Assembly (NCBI RefSeq): GCF_014698145.1
Contig: NZ_JACJSM010000001.1
Span: 216,633-280,632 of the forward strand
From: Oscillatoria sp. FACHB-1406
GTDB taxonomy: Bacteria; Cyanobacteriota; Cyanobacteriia; Cyanobacteriales; Spirulinaceae
DNA: 64,000 nt
Direction of reading: 5' to 3'
Shown here: piece by piece, positions 32,358-43,770 of the stretch
Position numbering within the stretch: position 1 is the stretch's first letter
Layout: every line of letters begins with the position of its first letter
Notes under the pieces: generated by a model
The model's input: the letters and a program-made list of their open reading frames with translations, nothing else
Told to the model about the DNA's origin: nothing
Databases searched by the model: none
Position numbers and translations under genes: made by a program

Positions 32358-33428
32358 TTAAGAAGGTTTTTGACCGTTGTTTTTAAAAAATTCTGCTCGC
32401 AACTCTTCTAATTCTAGATCGATCGCGTTAGCTGTGGTAATTGTAGGAGGCGGCGAAGGCGGAGAAGACTTTGGAGGTTTCGGCTGCACGAATTGACTGC
32501 GAATTCGCTCGATCTCAAAATCTAAGTTGCTCGTACCGTCTGGCAATTGATAAGGCTTTTGGACATCGCTGAGAACATCTCTCGCCGATTGATAGCGCTG
32601 ACTCGGAATAGGGTGTAACATTTTATCGAGGACTCTAGCGAGAGGCTCGCTAACGGGGTTGGGAAGCTGACCGTGCCAAGTCCAAACGCCTTCGTAAGAG
32701 TCGAAGAGATTGCTAGGAGCGATACCTGTGAGTAAGTGAATGCAAGTTACGCCGAGACTGTAAAGATCGCTTGCATAAGTCGCGCGTCCGAGGGCTTGTT
32801 CTGGCGGGATGTAGCCCATCGAACCAATCGCAGTTCCCGTTTGCATCGAACCGTCCGCATCTACACCCTTTGCTGCCCCAAAATCAACCAGGAACAGTCG
32901 TTCGTCGCTACGTCGGAGAATAATATTAGCTGGTTTAATATCGCGGTGAACGACTTGATGTTGGTGGACGAACTCGAGGACGGGCAATAAATCTTTGAGT
33001 AGGGCGCGAATTTGCGTTTCGCTAAAGGAACCGTTAGCGGCTAATTCTTGGGCGAGATCGTCTCCTTCAATAAATTCTTGCACTAAATATTGGCGATCGC
33101 CCTGAAAAAAATACGCCATCAGATCGGGGATTTGCTCGTGTCTGCCTAAAATATCGAGTTGGACTGCCTCTCGCTCGAACATTTGCGCCGCTTTTTCCAG
33201 CGATTGCTGCTTCTGGACTTGCGGTAACAATTGTTTGATAACGCAGTAGGGTTTAGAAGGTTTATCTTCATCAACCGCGAGGAAGGTTCGCCCAAATCCC
33301 CCTTGTCCGATGGGGCGCAGCGCGCGATATCGTTCTTTCAGGCGCAAAGGACTGCCGCAGGCATGACAAAATTGACTGGGAGAGGGGTTGTGAGGATGAG
33401 AGCAATTGGGATTGAGACAGTAGCTCAT
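32358..33428 (-). CDS. Ser/Thr protein kinase with N-terminal zinc ribbon
   Basis: N-terminus [17 protein letters not shown]. Kinase motifs [14 protein letters not shown] and APE-like PPE. Pro-rich C-terminus. Confidence 0.85.
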
Positions 33429-34303: not shown

Positions 34304-35068
34304 ATGCAAGTCTCAACAACCCCTCTTCCGCATCCTACTGCCGTTCGCGGCTATATCCACTCTTTTGAAAGCTGCGGTACTGTCGATGGCCCGGGCATTC
34401 GCTTTGTCATCTTTACCGCTGGTTGTCCCCTGCGATGTCTTTATTGCGCCAATCCCGACAGTCGTTACATGAAAAACGGCAAGGTGATGTCGGTGGACGA
34501 GTTAATTCCGGAGATTCAGAAATACACGACTTACATGAGAACCTCTGGGGGCGGCGTTACCGTCAGCGGTGGCGAACCACTCTATCAACCCCATTTTGTC
34601 GCAGAAATCTTTAGGCGCTGCAAGGCGTTGGGGATTCATACCGCCCTCGATACTTCCGGACATTGCGAGTTGCATTTAGCGAAAGCGGTTCTCGAGTATA
34701 CCGATCTCGTCCTCCTCGATATTAAATCTTTCGATCGCGCCCTGTTTGAGAAAGTGACGAGCGTTAATCTCGAACCCACCCTAGAAATGGCGCGTTACCT
34801 CGATGAAATCGGCAAACCGACTTGGATTCGCTTTGTTCTCGTTCCCGGTTTAACCGACGCTGCGGACAATGTTTGCGGGTTAGCCGATTTTGTGGCGACG
34901 CTGAACAATGTAGAAAAAGTGGAAGTTTTACCGTTCCATAAAATGGGCGAGTATAAGTGGGAACAGTTAGGTTATGACTACCAACTCCAGCAAGTCGAAC
35001 CGCCGACGCGATCGCAAATTGAAGTCGTTCTCGATATTTTCCACAGTCGAGGCATTAACGCAGTTTAA
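34304..35068 (+). CDS. pflA: pyruvate formate-lyase activating enzyme (radical SAM)
   Basis: 254 aa. Radical SAM motif CPLRCLYCAN and the preceding G-rich DGPGIRFVIF. Confidence 0.85.
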   Translation: MQVSTTPLPHPTAVRGYIHSFESCGTVDGPGIRFVIFTAGCPLRCLYCANPDSRYMKNGKVMSVDELIPEIQKYTTYMRTSGGGVTVSGGEPLYQPHFVAEIFRRCKALGIHTALDTSGHCELHLAKAVLEYTDLVLLDIKSFDRALFEKVTSVNLEPTLEMARYLDEIGKPTWIRFVLVPGLTDAADNVCGLADFVATLNNVEKVEVLPFHKMGEYKWEQLGYDYQLQQVEPPTRSQIEVVLDIFHSRGINAV

Positions 35069-35134
35069 ATGAATGATGAATAATGATTTGCTGCAATCGG
35101 AACGCAACACTTTCCTCAAAATCTTGGAGCAATT

Positions 35135-37819
35135 ATGAGCATTACCAATCGTCAAGAACTCGAACTCTTAATTCAATCGGTTAAAGCCGCTCAAGAGCAG
35201 TACGCAACCTTTTCTCAAGCGCAAGTCGATCGCATCTTCAAACAAGCCTCGCTCGCGGCCAACGCCGCCCGCATTCCCCTTGCAAAGCTAGCCGTACAAG
35301 AAACGGGGATGGGAATCGTCGAAGATAAAGTCATCAAAAATCACTTTGCTTCGGAATATATTTACAACAAGTACAAACAGGAGAAAACTTGCGGTGCGAT
35401 CGAAGAAGATAAATCCTTCGGCATTCAAAAGATCGCCGAACCCGTGGGAATTATCGCCGGGATTATTCCCGTGACTAATCCAACCTCGACCACCTTTTTT
35501 AAAGCTTTAATTGCCCTAAAAACGCGCAATGCAATCATCTTTTCGCCCCACCCCCGCGCTAAAAAATGCACGGCAGAAGCAGCCAAAGTGGTTTTAGAAG
35601 CAGCCGTTGCAGCGGGCGCGCCCGAAGGTTTAATCGGTTGGATTGACGAACCGACAGTAGAGTTATCGCAAGCATTAATGCAGCATCCCGATATTAAGTT
35701 AATTCTGGCAACGGGCGGCCCTGCAATGGTGAAAGCTGCCTATTCTTCGGGACATCCTTCTTTAGGTGTGGGGGCTGGAAATACGCCTGCTGTTATTGAT
35801 GAAAGTGCCGACATTCAAACGGCGGTTAGCTCGATTTTGTTGAGCAAAACGTTTGATAATGGCATGATTTGTGCATCGGAACAATCGGTTATTGTTTTAG
35901 ATGCAGTGTACGATCGCGTCAAACAAGAATTCCAGGATCGCGGGGCTTATTTCCTTTCCCCCGAACAGAAGCAACAAGTAAGCTGCATTCTGCTTAAGGA
36001 TGGTCATCTCAACCCGGCAATTGTCGGGCAATCGGTGGGACAAATCGCCGAACTTGCAGGCATTGGTTTAGTCTGTCTCGAAGATGTTACCAAGCCGCGC
36101 CAGCGAACGGAAACGCACAATCCCCTTCCTTGTACGCTGCCGAAAGTTTTAATTGGCGAAGTGGAAGAAATCGGTACGAGCGAACCATTTTCCTACGAAA
36201 AATTATCGCCGGTTCTGGCAATGTACCGCGCTAGCGATTTCCAAGATGCGGTCGCGAAAGCGAAAAAATTAGTCGAATTCGGCGGACAAGGACATACATC
36301 GGTATTGTATATTAACCCCGCCTATAAATCGGGAATTGCTGAATTTGAAAACGCGATGACGACTTCGCGAGTTCTCATTAATACGCCTTCTTCTCAAGGC
36401 GCGATCGGAGATTTGTACAACTTTAAACTCGATCCTTCCTTAACCCTCGGTTGCGGGACTTGGGGCGGCAATACGATTTCAGAAAACGTTACGCCGCACC
36501 ATTTACTGAACGTGAAAACCGTTTCGGAACGGCGGGAAAATATGCTCTGGTTCCGCATTCCGCCCAAGATTTATTTTAAATATGGGTGTTTGCCGGTAGC
36601 GTTGAAGGATTTAGCCGGAAAACAACGGGCTTTTATCGTTACAGATCGTCCTTTATTTCAAATGGGCGTAGTCGATAAAATTACCGTCGTTTTGGATGAA
36701 ATGGGGATCGACTACGACGTATTCCATGAAGTCGAACCCGATCCGACTTTAACGAATGTTAATAAGGGCTTAGAATTACTGCGGAATTATCAACCCGATG
36801 TCATCATTGCCATTGGCGGCGGTTCGCCGATGGATGCAGCGAAGGTGATGTGGTTGATGTACGAACATCCAGAGGTGGAATTTGAAGGTTTGGCGACGCG
36901 ATTTATGGATATTCGCAAGCGGGTTTACGAACTGCCAACCCTCGGACAAAAAGCGATGGTGGTGGCAATTCCGACGACTTCGGGAACGGGTTCGGAAGTT
37001 ACGCCCTTTGCCGTGATTACCGACGATCGCGCCGGGATTAAATACCCCTTAGCCGATTATGCCCTAACGCCGCACATGGCGATCGTCGATCCGGAATTAG
37101 TGCTGCATATGCCGAAAAAATTAACCGCTTACGGCGGAATCGATGCGCTGACGCACGCGCTGGAATCCTACGTTTCGGTACTGGCGACGGAATTTACTGA
37201 AGGGTTGGCGTTGGAAGCGATCGCGCTGCTCTTTAAATACCTCCCGCGATCGTACCAGAACGGGGCTAGCGATCCCGAAGCGCGGGAAAAAGTTCACTAC
37301 GCTGCCACGATTGCAGGGATGGCGTTTGCGAATGCGTTTTTGGGGGTTTGTCACTCGATGGCGCACAAACTCGGTTCTACTTTCCACGTTCCCCACGGGT
37401 TAGCGAATGCGCTGATGATTTCCCACGTCATCCGCTACAATGCAACGGATATTCCGTTTAAACAAGCGATTTTTCCGCAATATAAATACCCGCACGCAAA
37501 GGAACGCTATGCAAAAATTGCTGACTACTTGCAATTAGGCGGCGATACGCCCGATGAAAAAGTCGAACGGTTAGTCGATGCAATTGAGGAGTTAAAACAT
37601 CAACTCGATATTCCCAATACGGTGAAAGAAACTTTGTCTGAAGACGAGCAAGATTTTTACAACAAAGTAGAAGGAATGGCAGAGCAAGCGTTCGACGATC
37701 AATGCACGGGTGCAAATCCTCGCTATCCTTTAATTCAGGATTTGAAGGAACTGTATACCCTCGCTTATTTGGGATGCCGTACAGATGCCGTATTGTATCA
37801 TGAACCGGCGAATATCTAA
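35135..37819 (+). CDS. adhE: bifunctional acetaldehyde-CoA / alcohol dehydrogenase
   Basis: 894 aa. N-terminal aldehyde dehydrogenase domain and C-terminal Fe-ADH domain (GGGSPMDAAK). Confidence 0.9.
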   Translation: MSITNRQELELLIQSVKAAQEQYATFSQAQVDRIFKQASLAANAARIPLAKLAVQETGMGIVEDKVIKNHFASEYIYNKYKQEKTCGAIEEDKSFGIQKIAEPVGIIAGIIPVTNPTSTTFFKALIALKTRNAIIFSPHPRAKKCTAEAAKVVLEAAVAAGAPEGLIGWIDEPTVELSQALMQHPDIKLILATGGPAMVKAAYSSGHPSLGVGAGNTPAVIDESADIQTAVSSILLSKTFDNGMICASEQSVIVLDAVYDRVKQEFQDRGAYFLSPEQKQQVSCILLKDGHLNPAIVGQSVGQIAELAGIGLVCLEDVTKPRQRTETHNPLPCTLPKVLIGEVEEIGTSEPFSYEKLSPVLAMYRASDFQDAVAKAKKLVEFGGQGHTSVLYINPAYKSGIAEFENAMTTSRVLINTPSSQGAIGDLYNFKLDPSLTLGCGTWGGNTISENVTPHHLLNVKTVSERRENMLWFRIPPKIYFKYGCLPVALKDLAGKQRAFIVTDRPLFQMGVVDKITVVLDEMGIDYDVFHEVEPDPTLTNVNKGLELLRNYQPDVIIAIGGGSPMDAAKVMWLMYEHPEVEFEGLATRFMDIRKRVYELPTLGQKAMVVAIPTTSGTGSEVTPFAVITDDRAGIKYPLADYALTPHMAIVDPELVLHMPKKLTAYGGIDALTHALESYVSVLATEFTEGLALEAIALLFKYLPRSYQNGASDPEAREKVHYAATIAGMAFANAFLGVCHSMAHKLGSTFHVPHGLANALMISHVIRYNATDIPFKQAIFPQYKYPHAKERYAKIADYLQLGGDTPDEKVERLVDAIEELKHQLDIPNTVKETLSEDEQDFYNKVEGMAEQAFDDQCTGANPRYPLIQDLKELYTLAYLGCRTDAVLYHEPANI

Positions 37820-37847
37820 ATCGTGAATCGTTAGATTAATGGCGATT

Positions 37848-37878
37848 GTAGGGTGCGTTACGCTACGCTAACGCACCG
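37848..37878. repeat. dispersed palindromic element, family C (GGTGCGTTACGCT-ACGCTAACGCACC)
   Basis: Inverted copy at 43742-43770. Degenerate copies at ~34147-34170 and ~49628-49645. Confidence 0.7.
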
Positions 37879-38153
37879 TTAAAAGGAGGGCAGGCAAGGC
37901 AGTTATTATCTTTGTTGAGAGATTAATCTCAACACCTTGCGTCTCTACACTGGATTGGTAAGCATTGCTAAATTTAGCATAGCATACTACCTAGCTAAGG
38001 CAACTAACGTTCCGACTGAGTTATACTAATAAAATGCTACGCAGAACTTCACACAAACTTGATTCAGCAAGGCTAAAAATTGTTTATTTTTTTACTAGAG
38101 GTCATAGAGTCAACTGTCCGCATTCCAAACTTAGCAAGTATTAATGATATGAT

Positions 38154-38717
38154 ATGAAAATTTTCAATTTGACTCCAAGAGAACGAAGAAGATTAATAGG
38201 GAGAATTAGTCAGGCATCAGGGATTGCACGGTATGCGTTGGAAGCGAAGATGAGTGACGAACAAATCATTAAAGCTGCTGAAAATCTAAATACCTTAGCG
38301 CTCATTAAATCAGCTAATACTTATAATCGTTATTGTCAATCTCAAAAAACGGCTGAAGCGAATGAAAAGCTAAAGCAGTTCATTGATGTCAAAAATTCCG
38401 AGATTTATAAAGCGGGGCAGTGGTTGTTGAATTGCTTGTCTCGGACAGGACAAGATAGGAAAGAAAGTTTAATCAAAAAAAAATTAGTTCATAAAGAAGA
38501 TTACAATGAAGCTGTGGTTGACTTAACAGATACAGTCTCCGAACAAAAAGTGAAAGCTCAACAGCAAACGCTTATAGCCCAGAGAACAATAGAGGATATC
38601 CAACAGACTAATGACTCATTGCGAAAACAATTGGCTTTTATCCAAGAATATATAGAAAACAACTACAGTCACAAAGACTGGAAAGATGTAAAAAAGTATC
38701 TCCAAAAAAATATTTAA
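38154..38717 (+). CDS. hypothetical coiled-coil protein, AT-rich cassette gene 1
   Basis: 187 aa, Lys/Glu-rich. Codon usage dominated by AAA/AAT/GAA, unlike its neighbours. Confidence 0.6.
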   Translation: MKIFNLTPRERRRLIGRISQASGIARYALEAKMSDEQIIKAAENLNTLALIKSANTYNRYCQSQKTAEANEKLKQFIDVKNSEIYKAGQWLLNCLSRTGQDRKESLIKKKLVHKEDYNEAVVDLTDTVSEQKVKAQQQTLIAQRTIEDIQQTNDSLRKQLAFIQEYIENNYSHKDWKDVKKYLQKNI

Positions 38718-38718
38718 A

Positions 38719-39084
38719 GTGATGGCTCGAGTGAAGACTATCGAAGGGCTAAGTTATAGAGATTGGCAAAAGAGAAATAAACAATATTTTGATGCTTTAA
38801 GTAAAGAGCAGCAAAAAGATGCGAGAAGGCAAGGATATAATAATCGCGGATGGAAACAAATTAAGCGCGCTTGGAGGATCGTTCGTAAATTTAATCAAAA
38901 TGTAAAAAGTTTATTTGAATACAAGCTCGATAGGGGAGATTTAGTCGGTGCGATAGATATATCCCTCCTGGAAGCAGAGCGAGCAAAAGCAGTAGCGAAA
39001 ACTACGCTAAAAGAGCTTGAGAAACGACAAAAAGAATTAGACCAAATTGCAGACAGAGCCTTAAAAAAATATGTACCCCTTTAA
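38719..39084 (+). CDS. hypothetical basic protein, AT-rich cassette gene 2
   Basis: 121 aa. Starts 2 nt after the gene 1 stop. Basic and helical. Confidence 0.55.
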   Translation: MMARVKTIEGLSYRDWQKRNKQYFDALSKEQQKDARRQGYNNRGWKQIKRAWRIVRKFNQNVKSLFEYKLDRGDLVGAIDISLLEAERAKAVAKTTLKELEKRQKELDQIADRALKKYVPL

Positions 39085-39090
39085 AAAGTC

Positions 39091-39591
39091 ATGAGTGAAG
39101 TTGTTAAAAAATCAAGCCTGAAAACTTTATATCGTGCCAGCGATATTAATCGAGTTTGGCAAGCCAGCCAAAATGTACAGGCGATCGAGCATCCCGAACG
39201 CGGTTTCATTAGTCCAAACGAGTATCGTGCATTGTATAAAGGTAAGCCCTGCCCTTATTGTGGTCAGAAGATGGTGCATAGTCAACAACTTTATAGCACC
39301 ACTTCAAAGCAAGAAGCGATCGATCGAGGCTATGAATATACTGATAAGCTTGCTGGCAAGGTGATTAACCAAGCAGGCAATACTTTTTTTCATCCTCACT
39401 ATGTGACGTTAGACCACAAAATTAATAAAGCTCGTTGTCCGGAAAAAATGTTTGAGTTTAGCAATTTAGAGGTTATCTGTTGGCGCTGCAATCAGAATAA
39501 GGGTGATAATAATACTTTTGAGTTGCAACATAATTTGGATTATTTAAATGCTTTAGCGGATGAGGCGCTAACACGCTATCCGCTTCTTTAA
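39091..39591 (+). CDS. HNH endonuclease, AT-rich cassette gene 3
   Basis: 166 aa. CPYCGQ...HPHYVTLDHKINKARCP...NLEVICWRCNQNKGD reads as an HNH motif (C-x2-C ... DH ... N ... C-x2-C-N). Starts 6 nt after the gene 2 stop. Confidence 0.7.
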   Translation: MSEVVKKSSLKTLYRASDINRVWQASQNVQAIEHPERGFISPNEYRALYKGKPCPYCGQKMVHSQQLYSTTSKQEAIDRGYEYTDKLAGKVINQAGNTFFHPHYVTLDHKINKARCPEKMFEFSNLEVICWRCNQNKGDNNTFELQHNLDYLNALADEALTRYPLL

Positions 39592-39676
39592 AGTCTTACA
39601 CGGGTAAATTCGGTTGAAATGACGAACAACTTAACGTCTTCAGAAAGTTTGCACCGACTACACTGATTTAAAGATT

Positions 39677-42484
39677 ATGCAATCTCTGACATCCTCTGTT
39701 TCTGACCCTGCATCCGACCTTTTACGCTCCGAACATCGCCCGCTGGATGCCATTTTTGCGCCCAAATCCGTCGCCGTTATCGGTGCGACGGAGCGCCAGG
39801 GCAGCGTCGGACGTATTGTATTATGGAACCTGATTTCCAATTCCTTCGGCGGGACGGTGTATCCCGTCAATCCCAAACGGCATAGCGTACTGGGGATCAA
39901 GGCTTATCCCAGCATTGCCGAGATTCCCGAACAAGTCGATCTCGTCGCGATCGCGATCCCGGCTGCCTCAGTCCCCGGTACAATTCAAGAATGCGTCGAT
40001 GCAGGCGTAAAAGGCGCGATCGTCCTCTCGGCAGGATTCAAAGAAATCGGCCTCCAAGGAGTCGAACTCGAGCGGCAAATCAAAGAACAACTCAGCCGCA
40101 GTTCGATGCGCTTAATCGGCCCTAATTGTCTGGGAGTTATTAACCCGATCGCGGGCTTAAATGCTACCTTTGCCAACGCCATGCCCGCTCCCGGTAATGT
40201 CGGCTTTATCAGTCAAAGCGGCGCGCTTTGTTCGGCTATTTTAGACTGGAGTTTCCGCGAAAATGTCGGCTTTAGCTCCTTCATTTCCATCGGTTCGATG
40301 CTCGATGTCAATTGGGGCGACTTGATTTATTACCTGGGGGACGATCCCAATACCCATAGCATTGTCATTTACATGGAATCGATTGGCGATGCGCGTTCCT
40401 TCCTTTCCGCCGCGCGAGAAGTTGCGCTGACTAAGCCCATCGTCGTGCTGAAAACGGGGCGTACCGAAGCGGCGGCCCAGGCGGCAACGTCCCACACCGG
40501 CGCGCTAGCGGGAAGCGATGCGGTACTGGATGCAGCATTTCGTCGCTGCGGCGTGCTGCGCGTCGATACCATTTCCGAACTGTTCGATATTGCCGAAGTG
40601 TTAGCCAAACAGCCGCGCCCGAAAGGCCCGCGCCTGACGATTATTACCAATGCTGGCGGCCCGGGCGTTCTAGCGACCGATGCGTTACTCAAAGATGGCG
40701 GCGAACTAGCGCACCTATCCGAGAAGTCGATCGCGTCCCTCAACGAACAGCTACCGCTGTTTTGGAGCCATCACAACCCCATCGATATCTTAGGCGATGC
40801 CGACCCCGATCGCTACCAAAAAGCCCTGGAAATCGCCGCAAAAGACCCGGAGAGCGACGGTTTGCTGGTCATTCTCACCCCCCAAGCGATGACCGATCCC
40901 ACTCAAACCGCCCAACGCTTGAAAACTTGGGTGGAAAATCAACCGTCGCAGCGCGCCAAAAAACCGATTATCGCCAGTTGGATGGGCGATACGGATATTA
41001 ACGACGGTGAATTGCTGCTCAATCAAGCTAAGATTCCTACCTATCGCTTTCCCGATACGGCGGCGCGCGTGTTTAGCTATCTGTGGAAGTATAGCTACAA
41101 CCTGCGCGGAATTTACGAAACGCCGATCTTAGCAAGCGATAGGGAAGCTGAAATCGGCGATCCCGCAGGGATCCGCGTAGCGGCACGCGCGGTTGTCGAT
41201 ACCATTATCGATCGCGCGCGCCAAGCTGGGCGAACCCTCCTCACTGAAGTCGAATCCAAGCAAATCCTCGCCGCCTACAGCATTCCTGTCGTTCCGACTT
41301 CGCTCGCCGCTAGCGAAGAAGAAGCGGTAAACTGTGCGGAAGTGTTGGGCTATCCCGTCGTTCTCAAGCTCTTTTCCCAAACCATTACCCATAAAACCGA
41401 TGTTGGCGGCGTACAACTCAATTTAGTCGATGCAGAAGCCGTGCGGCGCGCCTACCAAACCATCGAATCCTCTGTCGCCGCCACCGTCGGAACCGAGCAT
41501 TTTTTAGGCGTAACGGTGCAACCAATGGTGAAACTTTCGGGCTATGAATTGATTATCGGCAGCAGTTTGGATCCGCAGTTCGGCTCGGTGCTGCTGTTCG
41601 GTTCTGGGGGACAATTAGTAGAAGTGTTCCAAGATCGCGCGATCGCATTACCGCCCCTCACCTCCACCTTAGCGCGGCGTTTAATGGAACAAACGCATAT
41701 ATACAAAGCGCTGCAAGGAACGCGGGGCAAACCTGCGGTGGATCTCGCCGCCCTCGAACAGTTGCTGGTGCGCTTCAGTCAACTCGTCGCCGAACAACGC
41801 TGGATTAAGGAGATCGACATTAATCCGCTTTTGGCTTCTCCTGTCGATAGCGCCAACCCCAATCCTTCCAGCCTTCTGGCGTTGGATGCTCGCATTGTCC
41901 TGCACGATGCTAGCCTCAGCGAAGATAAACTGCCGAAATTGGCGATTCGTCCTTATCCGGTGCAGTATGTTTCCCAGTGGAAGTTTGACGATGGGATGGA
42001 AGTGACGTTTCGCCCGATTCGTCCTGAAGACGAACCGTTAATCGTTCGCTTTCACGAAACTCTATCCGAGCAAAGCGTTTATCTGCGCTACTTCCATTTG
42101 CTCAAACTCAGTCAGCGCACCGCCCACGAACGCATGACGCGGATTTGCTTCGTCGATTACGATCGCGAAATGGCAATGGTAGTCGATTACAAAAATCCGG
42201 AAACGGGAACCCACGAAATTTTAGCGGCAGGGCGTTTGAGCAAGTTGCACGGCACGCGAGAGGCAGAATTTGCGATGATGGTGAGCGATCGCGTTCAATG
42301 TCGCGGTTTGGGGACGGAGTTATTGCGGCGGCTGCTGGAAATGGGGCGAGACGAGCAACTCGAGCGCGTAACCGCAGAGATTCTCTCGGATAATCTGGGA
42401 ATGCAGCACGTTTGTCGGAAACTCGGTTTTGAAATCTTACCGACGCAGGTTCCCTCCGTGGTGAAGGCCGCGATCGAATTTTAA
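39677..42484 (+). CDS. Pat-like protein: NDP-forming acyl-CoA synthetase domains fused to a C-terminal GNAT acetyltransferase
   Basis: 935 aa. N-terminal CoA-binding region ([14 protein letters not shown]), succinyl-CoA-synthetase-like and ATP-grasp regions, and a C-terminal GNAT ([12 protein letters not shown]). Confidence 0.75.
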
Positions 42485-42576: not shown

Positions 42577-43428
42577 TTAACTATTATGTTGACAATATTT
42601 CAGGGTCAGAATCGGTTCGTCTTTAACCGTATAAGCCGCCCCTGGAATTAAAATAAATTCGCTCGCTCCGACGGGATGACTTGGATTACCCCAATCATAA
42701 GTATAACCCAAGCCCGTAAACGGTTGCAGTCCGTTGCGAATGCTAATGTAATACAAGTTTTTAAAGAATAATGGGTAATCCGCGATCGCAGAATTCAGCG
42801 TTGCTCCTGCTACTTTGGGTTTTTCTTCACCAAACTTCAAATTACATTTTGTATCCGTCACTTCCGGATCGACGCAGGGGCGAAAGATATCTGCTGGATC
42901 GACCCACATTTCCACAAAAACATCATACTGCCAATTCGGGTCTAATCCCAAATATTGCTTCAATCGCAACTTCACATCCTCTTCCGTCGCATTGGGATTC
43001 TTTGTTAAATATTGGTGACAAAAATCCTTAACTTGGTTGGCTAACGTAACCCACAGCAAGCGATTTTCATCGCTGGACACATTGCGAGCGGGCTTAATAA
43101 AGCGATCGTAAGAACTTTGACTCTTCCAGGTGGTTACTAGAACCTTCGTTTTATCCTCATTCCAAATCAAATTGGAATTCTCGGGGACAAGCGCCAGCAA
43201 CTCATTGAAATCTTCTCCCTCTTCCACTAAAGCCGCATCTTGTACTGCCGCGCGATATCGCTCTTTTAAAGAGGGTTCAGAAGACTGAGAAATCCCTTTA
43301 GGAAGGAAAGCTAAGGAGCTACCGAAAACGCTAACCAAAAACAAGAGAGAATGAGCGATTGTTCTGTTTTTCCCGAATCTCATAGTTGTCTTTATTGTCA
43401 GGATGATATTTTTTGAGTAGTTAGTCAC
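42577..43428 (-). CDS. hypothetical exported protein
   Basis: 283 aa. Probable signal peptide at the internal start MRFGKNRTIAHSLLFLVSVFGSSLAFL. Confidence 0.5.
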   Translation of the reverse strand: MTNYSKNIILTIKTTMRFGKNRTIAHSLLFLVSVFGSSLAFLPKGISQSSEPSLKERYRAAVQDAALVEEGEDFNELLALVPENSNLIWNEDKTKVLVTTWKSQSSYDRFIKPARNVSSDENRLLWVTLANQVKDFCHQYLTKNPNATEEDVKLRLKQYLGLDPNWQYDVFVEMWVDPADIFRPCVDPEVTDTKCNLKFGEEKPKVAGATLNSAIADYPLFFKNLYYISIRNGLQPFTGLGYTYDWGNPSHPVGASEFILIPGAAYTVKDEPILTLKYCQHNS

Positions 43429-43727: not shown

Positions 43728-43741
43728 AAATCTGCTGAGAC

Positions 43742-43770
43742 GGTGCGTTACGCTTCGCTAACACACCCTA
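43742..43770. repeat. dispersed palindromic element, family C (inverted copy)
   Basis: ggtgcgttacgcttcgctaacacaccctac, to be compared with 37848-37878. Confidence 0.65.

Follow-up and report, generated by a model that had tools for sequence, protein, structure and literature searches.

We analyzed a stretch of 64,000 nucleotides (nt) from Oscillatoria sp. FACHB-1406 (contig NZ_JACJSM010000001.1, positions 216,633 to 280,632), hereafter the window, and found that three small genes lying downstream of adhE, termed g1, g2, and g3, constitute a rare, horizontally transferred, and self-contained operon that occurs in cyanobacteria only. Its last gene encodes a predicted HNH nuclease, and the products of g2 and g3 end in one common helix and tail, which is a new clue from this analysis. 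Although effectors of this type are known, none of the libraries that we searched contains the two partner proteins, the strict triad, or the shared-tail architecture. Our tentative reading, held at a little under an even chance, is that the triad represents a regulated-nuclease conflict module, with defense against invading DNA as its most likely role. The features of the cassette, in window positions, are as follows:

37820-38153, plus strand: leader that separates g1 from the adhE stop, presumed promoter region, unconserved across loci
38154-38717, plus strand: g1, open reading frame (ORF) of 187 amino acids (aa)
38719-39084, plus strand: g2, 121-aa ORF from GTG 38719; with the start set by homology at 38731, it spans 38731-39084 and encodes 117 aa
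39013-39081, plus strand: C-terminal helix and tail of g2 (...IADRALKKYVPL), from the hhalign comparison with the g3 tail and the tail motif
39091-39591, plus strand: g3, 166-aa ORF, HNH
39391-39513, plus strand: predicted HNH ββα-metal core of g3, residues 101-141, from the Pfam match at residues 104-139 and the invariant columns
39520-39588, plus strand: C-terminal helix and tail of g3 (...LADEALTRYPLL), homologous to the g2 tail

The triad is packed between the adhE stop codon (37819) and the start of the next gene (39677), with all genes on the same strand. The original prediction, made from the DNA letters alone, had described three small, closely packed ORFs of the same orientation, and this layout was borne out (38154-39591). 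Of the two gaps it gave, the one of 6 nt between g2 and g3 is correct; the other, of 2 nt between g1 and g2, depends on the g2 start, this distance being 1, 4, or 13 nt when g2 starts at GTG 38719, ATG 38722, or GTG 38731, respectively. The claimed AT richness was confirmed as well. The GC content of the cassette is 0.375, as compared to 0.48 and 0.51 in the 4-kb flanks and 0.492 in the entire window, and when measured in 300-nt steps, it stays at 0.34 to 0.40 over 37800-39600 versus 0.45 to 0.59 on either side. The cassette also departs from its flanks in 13 of 14 hosts, where it is given as AT-poorer, and the pattern is elsewhere described as AT-rich.

We found the triad complete and in the same gene order in all 23 distinct loci examined, which were chromosomal or located on one of five plasmids. 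In tblastn searches of 13 species-representative genomes together with metagenomic and plasmid loci, there was one copy per genome, and the intergenic gaps ranged from −17 to +53 nt. The triad is present in 13 of 185,579 species representatives, all its named sources are cyanobacteria, and it was not detected in 50,697 phage records or in IMG/VR. The homologues of g1 and g3 in many cases lie on the same contigs. Its neighborhoods are unrelated to each other: it lies beside MltA/TamB in Lusitaniella, CobN/Uma2 in Lyngbya, and type I restriction-modification (R-M) genes on a Euhalothece plasmid, and at other loci beside DUF1517/globin or ligA/nitroreductase. Two strains of Acaryochloris marina carry triads that are just 50 to 55% identical, on different plasmids and with unrelated flanks, which argues for independent acquisition. 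The idea of a horizontally acquired module is thus supported by the unrelated contexts in 13 other cyanobacterial species-representative genomes and five plasmids, by composition, and by the divergent A. marina triads.

Ratios of nonsynonymous to synonymous substitution rates of 0.07 to 0.31 (0.07 to 0.31 for g2 and 0.07 to 0.11 for g3) show purifying selection on each of the three genes. The pairwise identities of g1, g2, and g3 correlate weakly with each other (r = 0.18 to 0.35); because all pairs fall within a narrow band of 39 to 67%, these correlations are uninformative on co-evolution. Copies of the triad can decay, as seen in the divergent metagenomic variant L039 (3638-3934), where an internal deletion or frameshift has left g3 with 98 aa, as compared to the 155 aa retained by its sisters L038 and L040. 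We also considered whether the triad resides on a small plasmid or circular element and rejected this, since the contigs of 1 to 5 kb on which many homologues lie turned out to be fragmented chromosomal assemblies with ordinary flanking genes. Full-text literature searches returned no description of the triad.

The HNH motif that had been noticed in g3 holds up both by its Pfam score and by the invariance of the catalytic and zinc-binding residues. Residues 104-139 match PF01844 with E = 4.1e-6 and 27.3 bits (cutoff 21.4). Among 91 g3 homologues, we compared 26 and found C54, C57, D108, H109, N125, C130, C133, N134, K137, D139, and N141 to be invariant, so that the CPYC, DH, N, and CWRCN..K..D.N elements are kept in all 26. 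The N-terminal ~50 residues are conserved and family specific. Judged by these residues, g3 is a zinc-braced (CxxC...CxxC) ββα-metal nuclease of the H-N-N type, with its predicted active site intact. The best PADLOC matches of g3 were PtuB profiles (E = 3.8e-8) and PDC-M01B, and its top match in PHROGs was phrog_1035, annotated as "endonuclease VII" (E = 3.5e-7, residues 40-146); Pfam Endonuclease_7 gave no match at E ≤ 1.

The products of g2 and g3 both end in a helix and tail of the form ...AL-x-[KR]-Y-x-x-L. Aligned by hhalign, residues 98-120 of g2 and 144-166 of g3 reach a score of 40.1, as compared to 12.7 ± 2.4 in 200 column shuffles, the highest of which gave 21.9. The similarity is confined to the last ~23 residues, and with the tails removed, the score drops to 17.3. 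The terminal motif [KRQ]-Y-x-x-[LF]-COOH is found in all 7 g2 homologues and in 68 of the 91 g3 homologues, and in none of 98 g1 homologues or 92 neighboring proteins. The two tails also co-vary inside loci, where they are identical at 5.5 of 14 residues versus 4.5 (permutation p ~2e-4, in a test that ignores shared phylogeny). In pREC4, Q is the last residue of both tails, and the two also change together in the divergent L038 lineage, to another pattern that ends in I. The third codon positions of the tails show no excess of identity, which favors co-adaptation over gene conversion. Together, these observations suggest that the common tail may serve one docking partner for g2 and g3, possibly g1. 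We also asked whether g2 as a whole could be a degenerate HNH paralogue of g3, because a first hhalign comparison had spanned 86 columns (P = 4e-6), and rejected this candidate, as the score without the tail equals the shuffle null.

The original prediction saw in g1 a Lys/Glu-rich coiled-coil protein of 187 aa. The length was correct, and the view of a mere coiled coil was not, as the conserved part is formed by the N-terminal ~110 to 120 residues, which hold most of the 23 invariant positions. The protein is all helical, with a 57-residue helix at residues 114-170 in the AlphaFold2 (AF2) model (mean predicted local distance difference test score, pLDDT, 88.5). Its 98 homologues are 45 to 65% identical, and an exhaustive HMMER profile search of 1.84 billion representative proteins delimited a family of 53 clusters, all of similar length. 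NCBI lets g1 begin at M33, giving a protein of 155 aa (P0001) that lacks the 32 residues before it. This segment contains six positions that are invariant across 26 homologues (R11, G23, A25, Y27, A28, and K32); thus, the 187-aa ORF is the real g1 gene. The N terminus shows a weak, nonsignificant resemblance to the MntR-type helix-turn-helix (HTH). We propose that g1 may act as a scaffold or receptor.

The g2 product is, as predicted, a basic protein; it is helical, with the N-terminal motif YRxWQxRN...GYxNxGW followed by a long C-terminal helix. The reported length of 121 aa applies only to a start at GTG 38719. Starting at GTG 38731 yields MKTIEGLSYRDW, which fits the MKxIxGxNYRxW of the homologues and the 117-aa call of NCBI, and this start is, by homology, the most likely one. 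The protein is present in every triad, at 39 to 60% identity, and its AF2 model is weak (pLDDT 67). Neither g1 nor g2 had a credible match in Pfam, NCBIfam, PADLOC, or PHROGs, in profile searches of PDB sequences, or among solved folds, in agreement with the earlier remark that these two proteins belong to no named system. The original prediction had listed, as findings that would speak against it, a GC profile like that of the flanks, conservation of all three genes at this locus across the genus, and assignment of g1 and g2 to a housekeeping family together with loss of the catalytic His/Asn from g3; we found none of these.

The genes around the triad at other loci bear on its function. A scan of 92 neighboring ORFs identified Uma2 (three cases), a retron-type RT_XIII reverse transcriptase, type I R-M, Cas1, nucleotidyltransferases, and DUF5615; most of the neighbors are housekeeping. 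By raw count, defense genes occur within ±5 kb in roughly 6 to 8 of ~21 contexts. The triad of the divergent L121-L124 lineage has a PLD-SNF2 helicase of 1182 aa directly on one side and an Eco57I/MmeI-type N6-methylase directly on the other (flanking genes at L121 300-3848 and 5576-7564 and at L123 2716-5196), and the three may together make up a larger composite defense locus. In Lusitaniella coriacea, the retron-type reverse transcriptase (PADLOC RT_XIII, E = 2e-193; L007 71-1690) and a PIN-domain pair are located 3.3 kb before the triad, on its upstream side. Plasmid copies are found near VapC, BrnT, a RecB-like nuclease, T4CP/M23 peptidase, a PolA-like polymerase, a DUF3854 primase-like protein, and a strawberry-notch helicase. 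These neighbors are, by raw count, suggestive of conflict islands. Thus, the earlier assignment of the cassette to defense or addiction is plausible and the case for it circumstantial, with some loci beside R-M, reverse transcriptase, Cas1, helicase-methylase, or toxin-antitoxin (TA) genes and many in housekeeping surroundings.

According to the reading that we tentatively prefer, the output of the operon would be regulated DNA cleavage. The effector would be g3, and g1, with its long coiled-coil helix, and g2 would be obligate partners controlling it. The amphipathic C-terminal helices of g2 and g3, which end in [K/R]-Y-x-x-L-COOH, would both dock on one receptor, and the most economical candidate for this receptor is g1, which could tether or restrain the nuclease. 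The role of g2 might be that of a co-tethered adaptor or of a competitor for the same receptor site. The module would cut invading phage or plasmid DNA, or alternatively the host chromosome as an abortive response. In this scheme, complex formation, the identity of the receptor, the trigger, and the defense role are what we infer. The strict triad, its horizontal spread, purifying selection, the apparently intact HNH site, the shared tail, the nearby defense genes, and the absence from phages all count for a conflict module.

Several observations weigh against such a role. The triad contains no NTPase or recognizable sensor domain. The matches of g3 to PtuB and PDC profiles are limited to a generic HNH core of ~40 residues. 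Many loci are flanked by housekeeping genes only, and in the window, the flanks are purely metabolic and form a fermentation cluster. Last, the co-variation of the tails would fit equally well with both of them adapting to a host factor, e.g., a protease. A more specific version of the conflict-module reading, which we regard as unlikely, would make the triad a hitherto undescribed, cyanobacteria-specific tripartite immune or addiction system, in which nuclease and partner carry interchangeable tails for one coiled-coil receptor, competition between tails or their exchange releases the HNH nuclease, and the non-nuclease parts are unrelated to known defense proteins.

Some of the same evidence can be accommodated by other functions. 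If the triad served addiction, with TA-like postsegregational killing, g3 would be a DNase toxin that g2 and/or g1 neutralize, and the benefit would be the stabilization of plasmids and genomic islands instead of protection from phage. The small, tightly packed genes with the nuclease last, the patchy, horizontal distribution, and the five plasmid copies, often beside TA genes such as VapC and BrnT, are all consistent with this, and the common hydrophobic C-terminal tail could, by analogy with tripartite toxin-antitoxin-chaperone (TAC) systems, function as a degron or in docking to a chaperone. However, most copies are chromosomal and lie between housekeeping genes, three genes conserved without exception are more than a minimal TA pair requires, and g1 and g2 match no antitoxin family. 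Moreover, operator-like palindromes are, on average, not clearly enriched upstream of the triad: over 20 loci, the mean z of upstream inverted repeats is 0.83, and the 3 loci that exceed almost all shuffles do not include the one in the window. We therefore consider a pure addiction function rather improbable. The plasmid copies and their neighbors (T4CP/M23 peptidase, PolA-like polymerase, DUF3854, and strawberry-notch helicase) would also suit an accessory DNA transaction, such as the resolution of branched DNA or multimers or the processing of plasmid or transferred DNA, with g3 as a structure-specific nuclease similar in type to T4 endonuclease VII and with DNA binding or targeting provided by g1 and g2 as subunits. 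The top PHROG match of g3, the basic character of g2, and the faint HTH likeness of g1 point in this direction, whereas the lack of a Pfam Endonuclease_7 match, an occurrence far too rare for housekeeping, an AT-rich and horizontally moving pattern typical of conflict genes, and chromosomal copies unconnected with genes for replication or transfer argue against it and leave it quite unlikely.

An HNH nuclease within insertion-like, AT-rich DNA placed between intact genes might, finally, be the mark of a selfish homing cassette, in which g3 would act as a free-standing homing endonuclease, cleaving empty sites into which repair then copies the cassette. However, the contexts of the triad all differ, the insertion site being another one in every genus with no common target or flank, and each genome has a single copy. 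Phages, IMG/VR, introns, and inteins are all free of the cassette, it carries no DNA-binding modules of the NUMOD or IENR type, and homing would leave two extra genes under strong purifying selection unexplained. Homing is, in our judgment, very improbable.

Comparison with known systems places the putative conflict module at some distance from each of them. As in the HNH superfamily (PF01844; small HNH proteins of the McrA/COG1403 type), g3 has a DH...N...CxxCN..K core and two CxxC pairs and scores above the Pfam gathering cutoff; it differs in that the last metal ligand is Asn, the N-terminal ~50 residues are its own, the docking helix and tail are common with g2, and two orphan partners are always present. 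Septu (PtuA ATPase and PtuB HNH), PDC-M01B, and PDC-S64 appear to use the same effector type; however, g3 matches only positions ~62-110 of profiles that are 198 to 268 positions long and thus is not a full-length PtuB, there is no PtuA-like ABC ATPase inside the triad, and g1 and g2 lack PADLOC or Pfam matches. In TAC systems, a C-terminal extension acts as a docking element, and like these and other three-gene TA modules, the triad consists of three small co-oriented genes with a C-terminal extension, which makes the two comparable by analogy. In contrast to TAC, the tail of the triad is carried by both the nuclease and the middle protein, and there is no SecB-like chaperone, known antitoxin fold, or clear operator signal. 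Lamassu (LmuB/LmuA) and Zorya II (ZorA/ZorE HNH) similarly combine a coiled-coil protein with a nuclease effector in a compact operon; unlike their components, g1 measures 187 aa and has neither SMC/ABC ATPase heads nor a membrane motor, and we found no similarity in sequence or fold.

The noncoding parts of the cassette are not conserved. From the adhE stop to the ATG of g1, the leader measures 334 nt and not ~270 bp as reported before. The two palindromes described as its features do not exceed chance: no perfect arm in the final 200 nt is longer than 7 nt, a length that 14% of shuffles reach. Their interpretation as operators was rejected on this ground, and also because the one strong hairpin in the leader is a dispersed repeat. 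This GC-rich hairpin, GGGTGCGTTACGCTACGCTAACGCACC, lies at 37851-37877, just past the adhE stop; a second copy, with three mismatches, is found at 43741-43767, upstream of hcp, and the chance expectation is zero copies. It resembles a dispersed repeat of cyanobacteria or a terminator element and does not belong to the cassette. Upstream regions of 20 loci shared no k-mers beyond shuffle expectation, the leader had no excess of promoter-like sites, and an Rfam scan of it gave no match. The search for flanking direct repeats that had been advised detected neither direct nor inverted repeats around the cassette, and there is no tRNA near it. We therefore rejected terminal repeats, target duplications, and a conserved leader RNA, and the conserved unit is the three coding sequences alone.

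No terminator-like site was found after g3, and the next gene is 85 nt away, so that read-through from g3 into this gene is possible. In Lyngbya sp. PCC 8106 (L009 6464-6670), tandem hairpin units of ~65 nt, GGGTGGGTGAG...CTCACCCACCC, directly follow the 3′ end of g3. The breaks in the Lyngbya assembly coincide with this downstream tandem hairpin repeat, and three independent assemblies (L003-L005) stop exactly 61 nt past the g3 stop, at the hairpin array. An empty site was not found, either by exact look-ups of the adhE and pat proteins or in a metagenome scan with adhE, in which none of 80 loci had pat or the cassette downstream and the four closest contigs end ~0 to 720 nt beyond adhE.

The neighbors in the window are core metabolic genes with the identities that had been given to them. 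The flanking pflA (TIGR02493) and adhE (NF010378) score above the curated NCBIfam cutoffs. The gene called pat-like corresponds to the alpha domain of ADP-forming acetate-CoA ligase (562.5 bits, just below the cutoff of 567.15) with a GNAT/Pat-like C terminus, and hcp encodes hydroxylamine reductase. An apparent mixed-acid fermentation cluster (34304-42484) is thus split into pflA-adhE, the cassette, and the ADP-forming acetyl-CoA synthetase. Between the acs/pat-like gene and hcp, a 283-aa ORF on the minus strand (42577-43428) has an apparent hydrophobic signal at its N terminus and no NCBIfam match at E ≤ 1e-10. Farther upstream, also on the minus strand, a 356-aa Ser/Thr kinase (32358-33428) carries a zinc-ribbon-like motif at its N terminus. 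Its best NCBIfam match is the antiphage MADS6 kinase, at 147.8 bits against a cutoff of 460, and this likeness probably reflects generic kinase similarity.

For the window itself, our results mean that a pflA-adhE-acs fermentation cluster has been interrupted by foreign DNA. The co-varying tail on a nuclease and its neighbor offers a point at which the control of the nuclease can be tested directly. Should the cassette be only an addiction module, it would still be useful for marking DNA that cyanobacterial genomes have acquired horizontally. Current catalogues of defense systems, built mostly from Proteobacteria and Firmicutes, cover cyanobacteria poorly, and an operon of ~1.4 kb that combines an apparently intact HNH nuclease with two proteins lacking detectable relatives is a clean candidate for a new conflict system.

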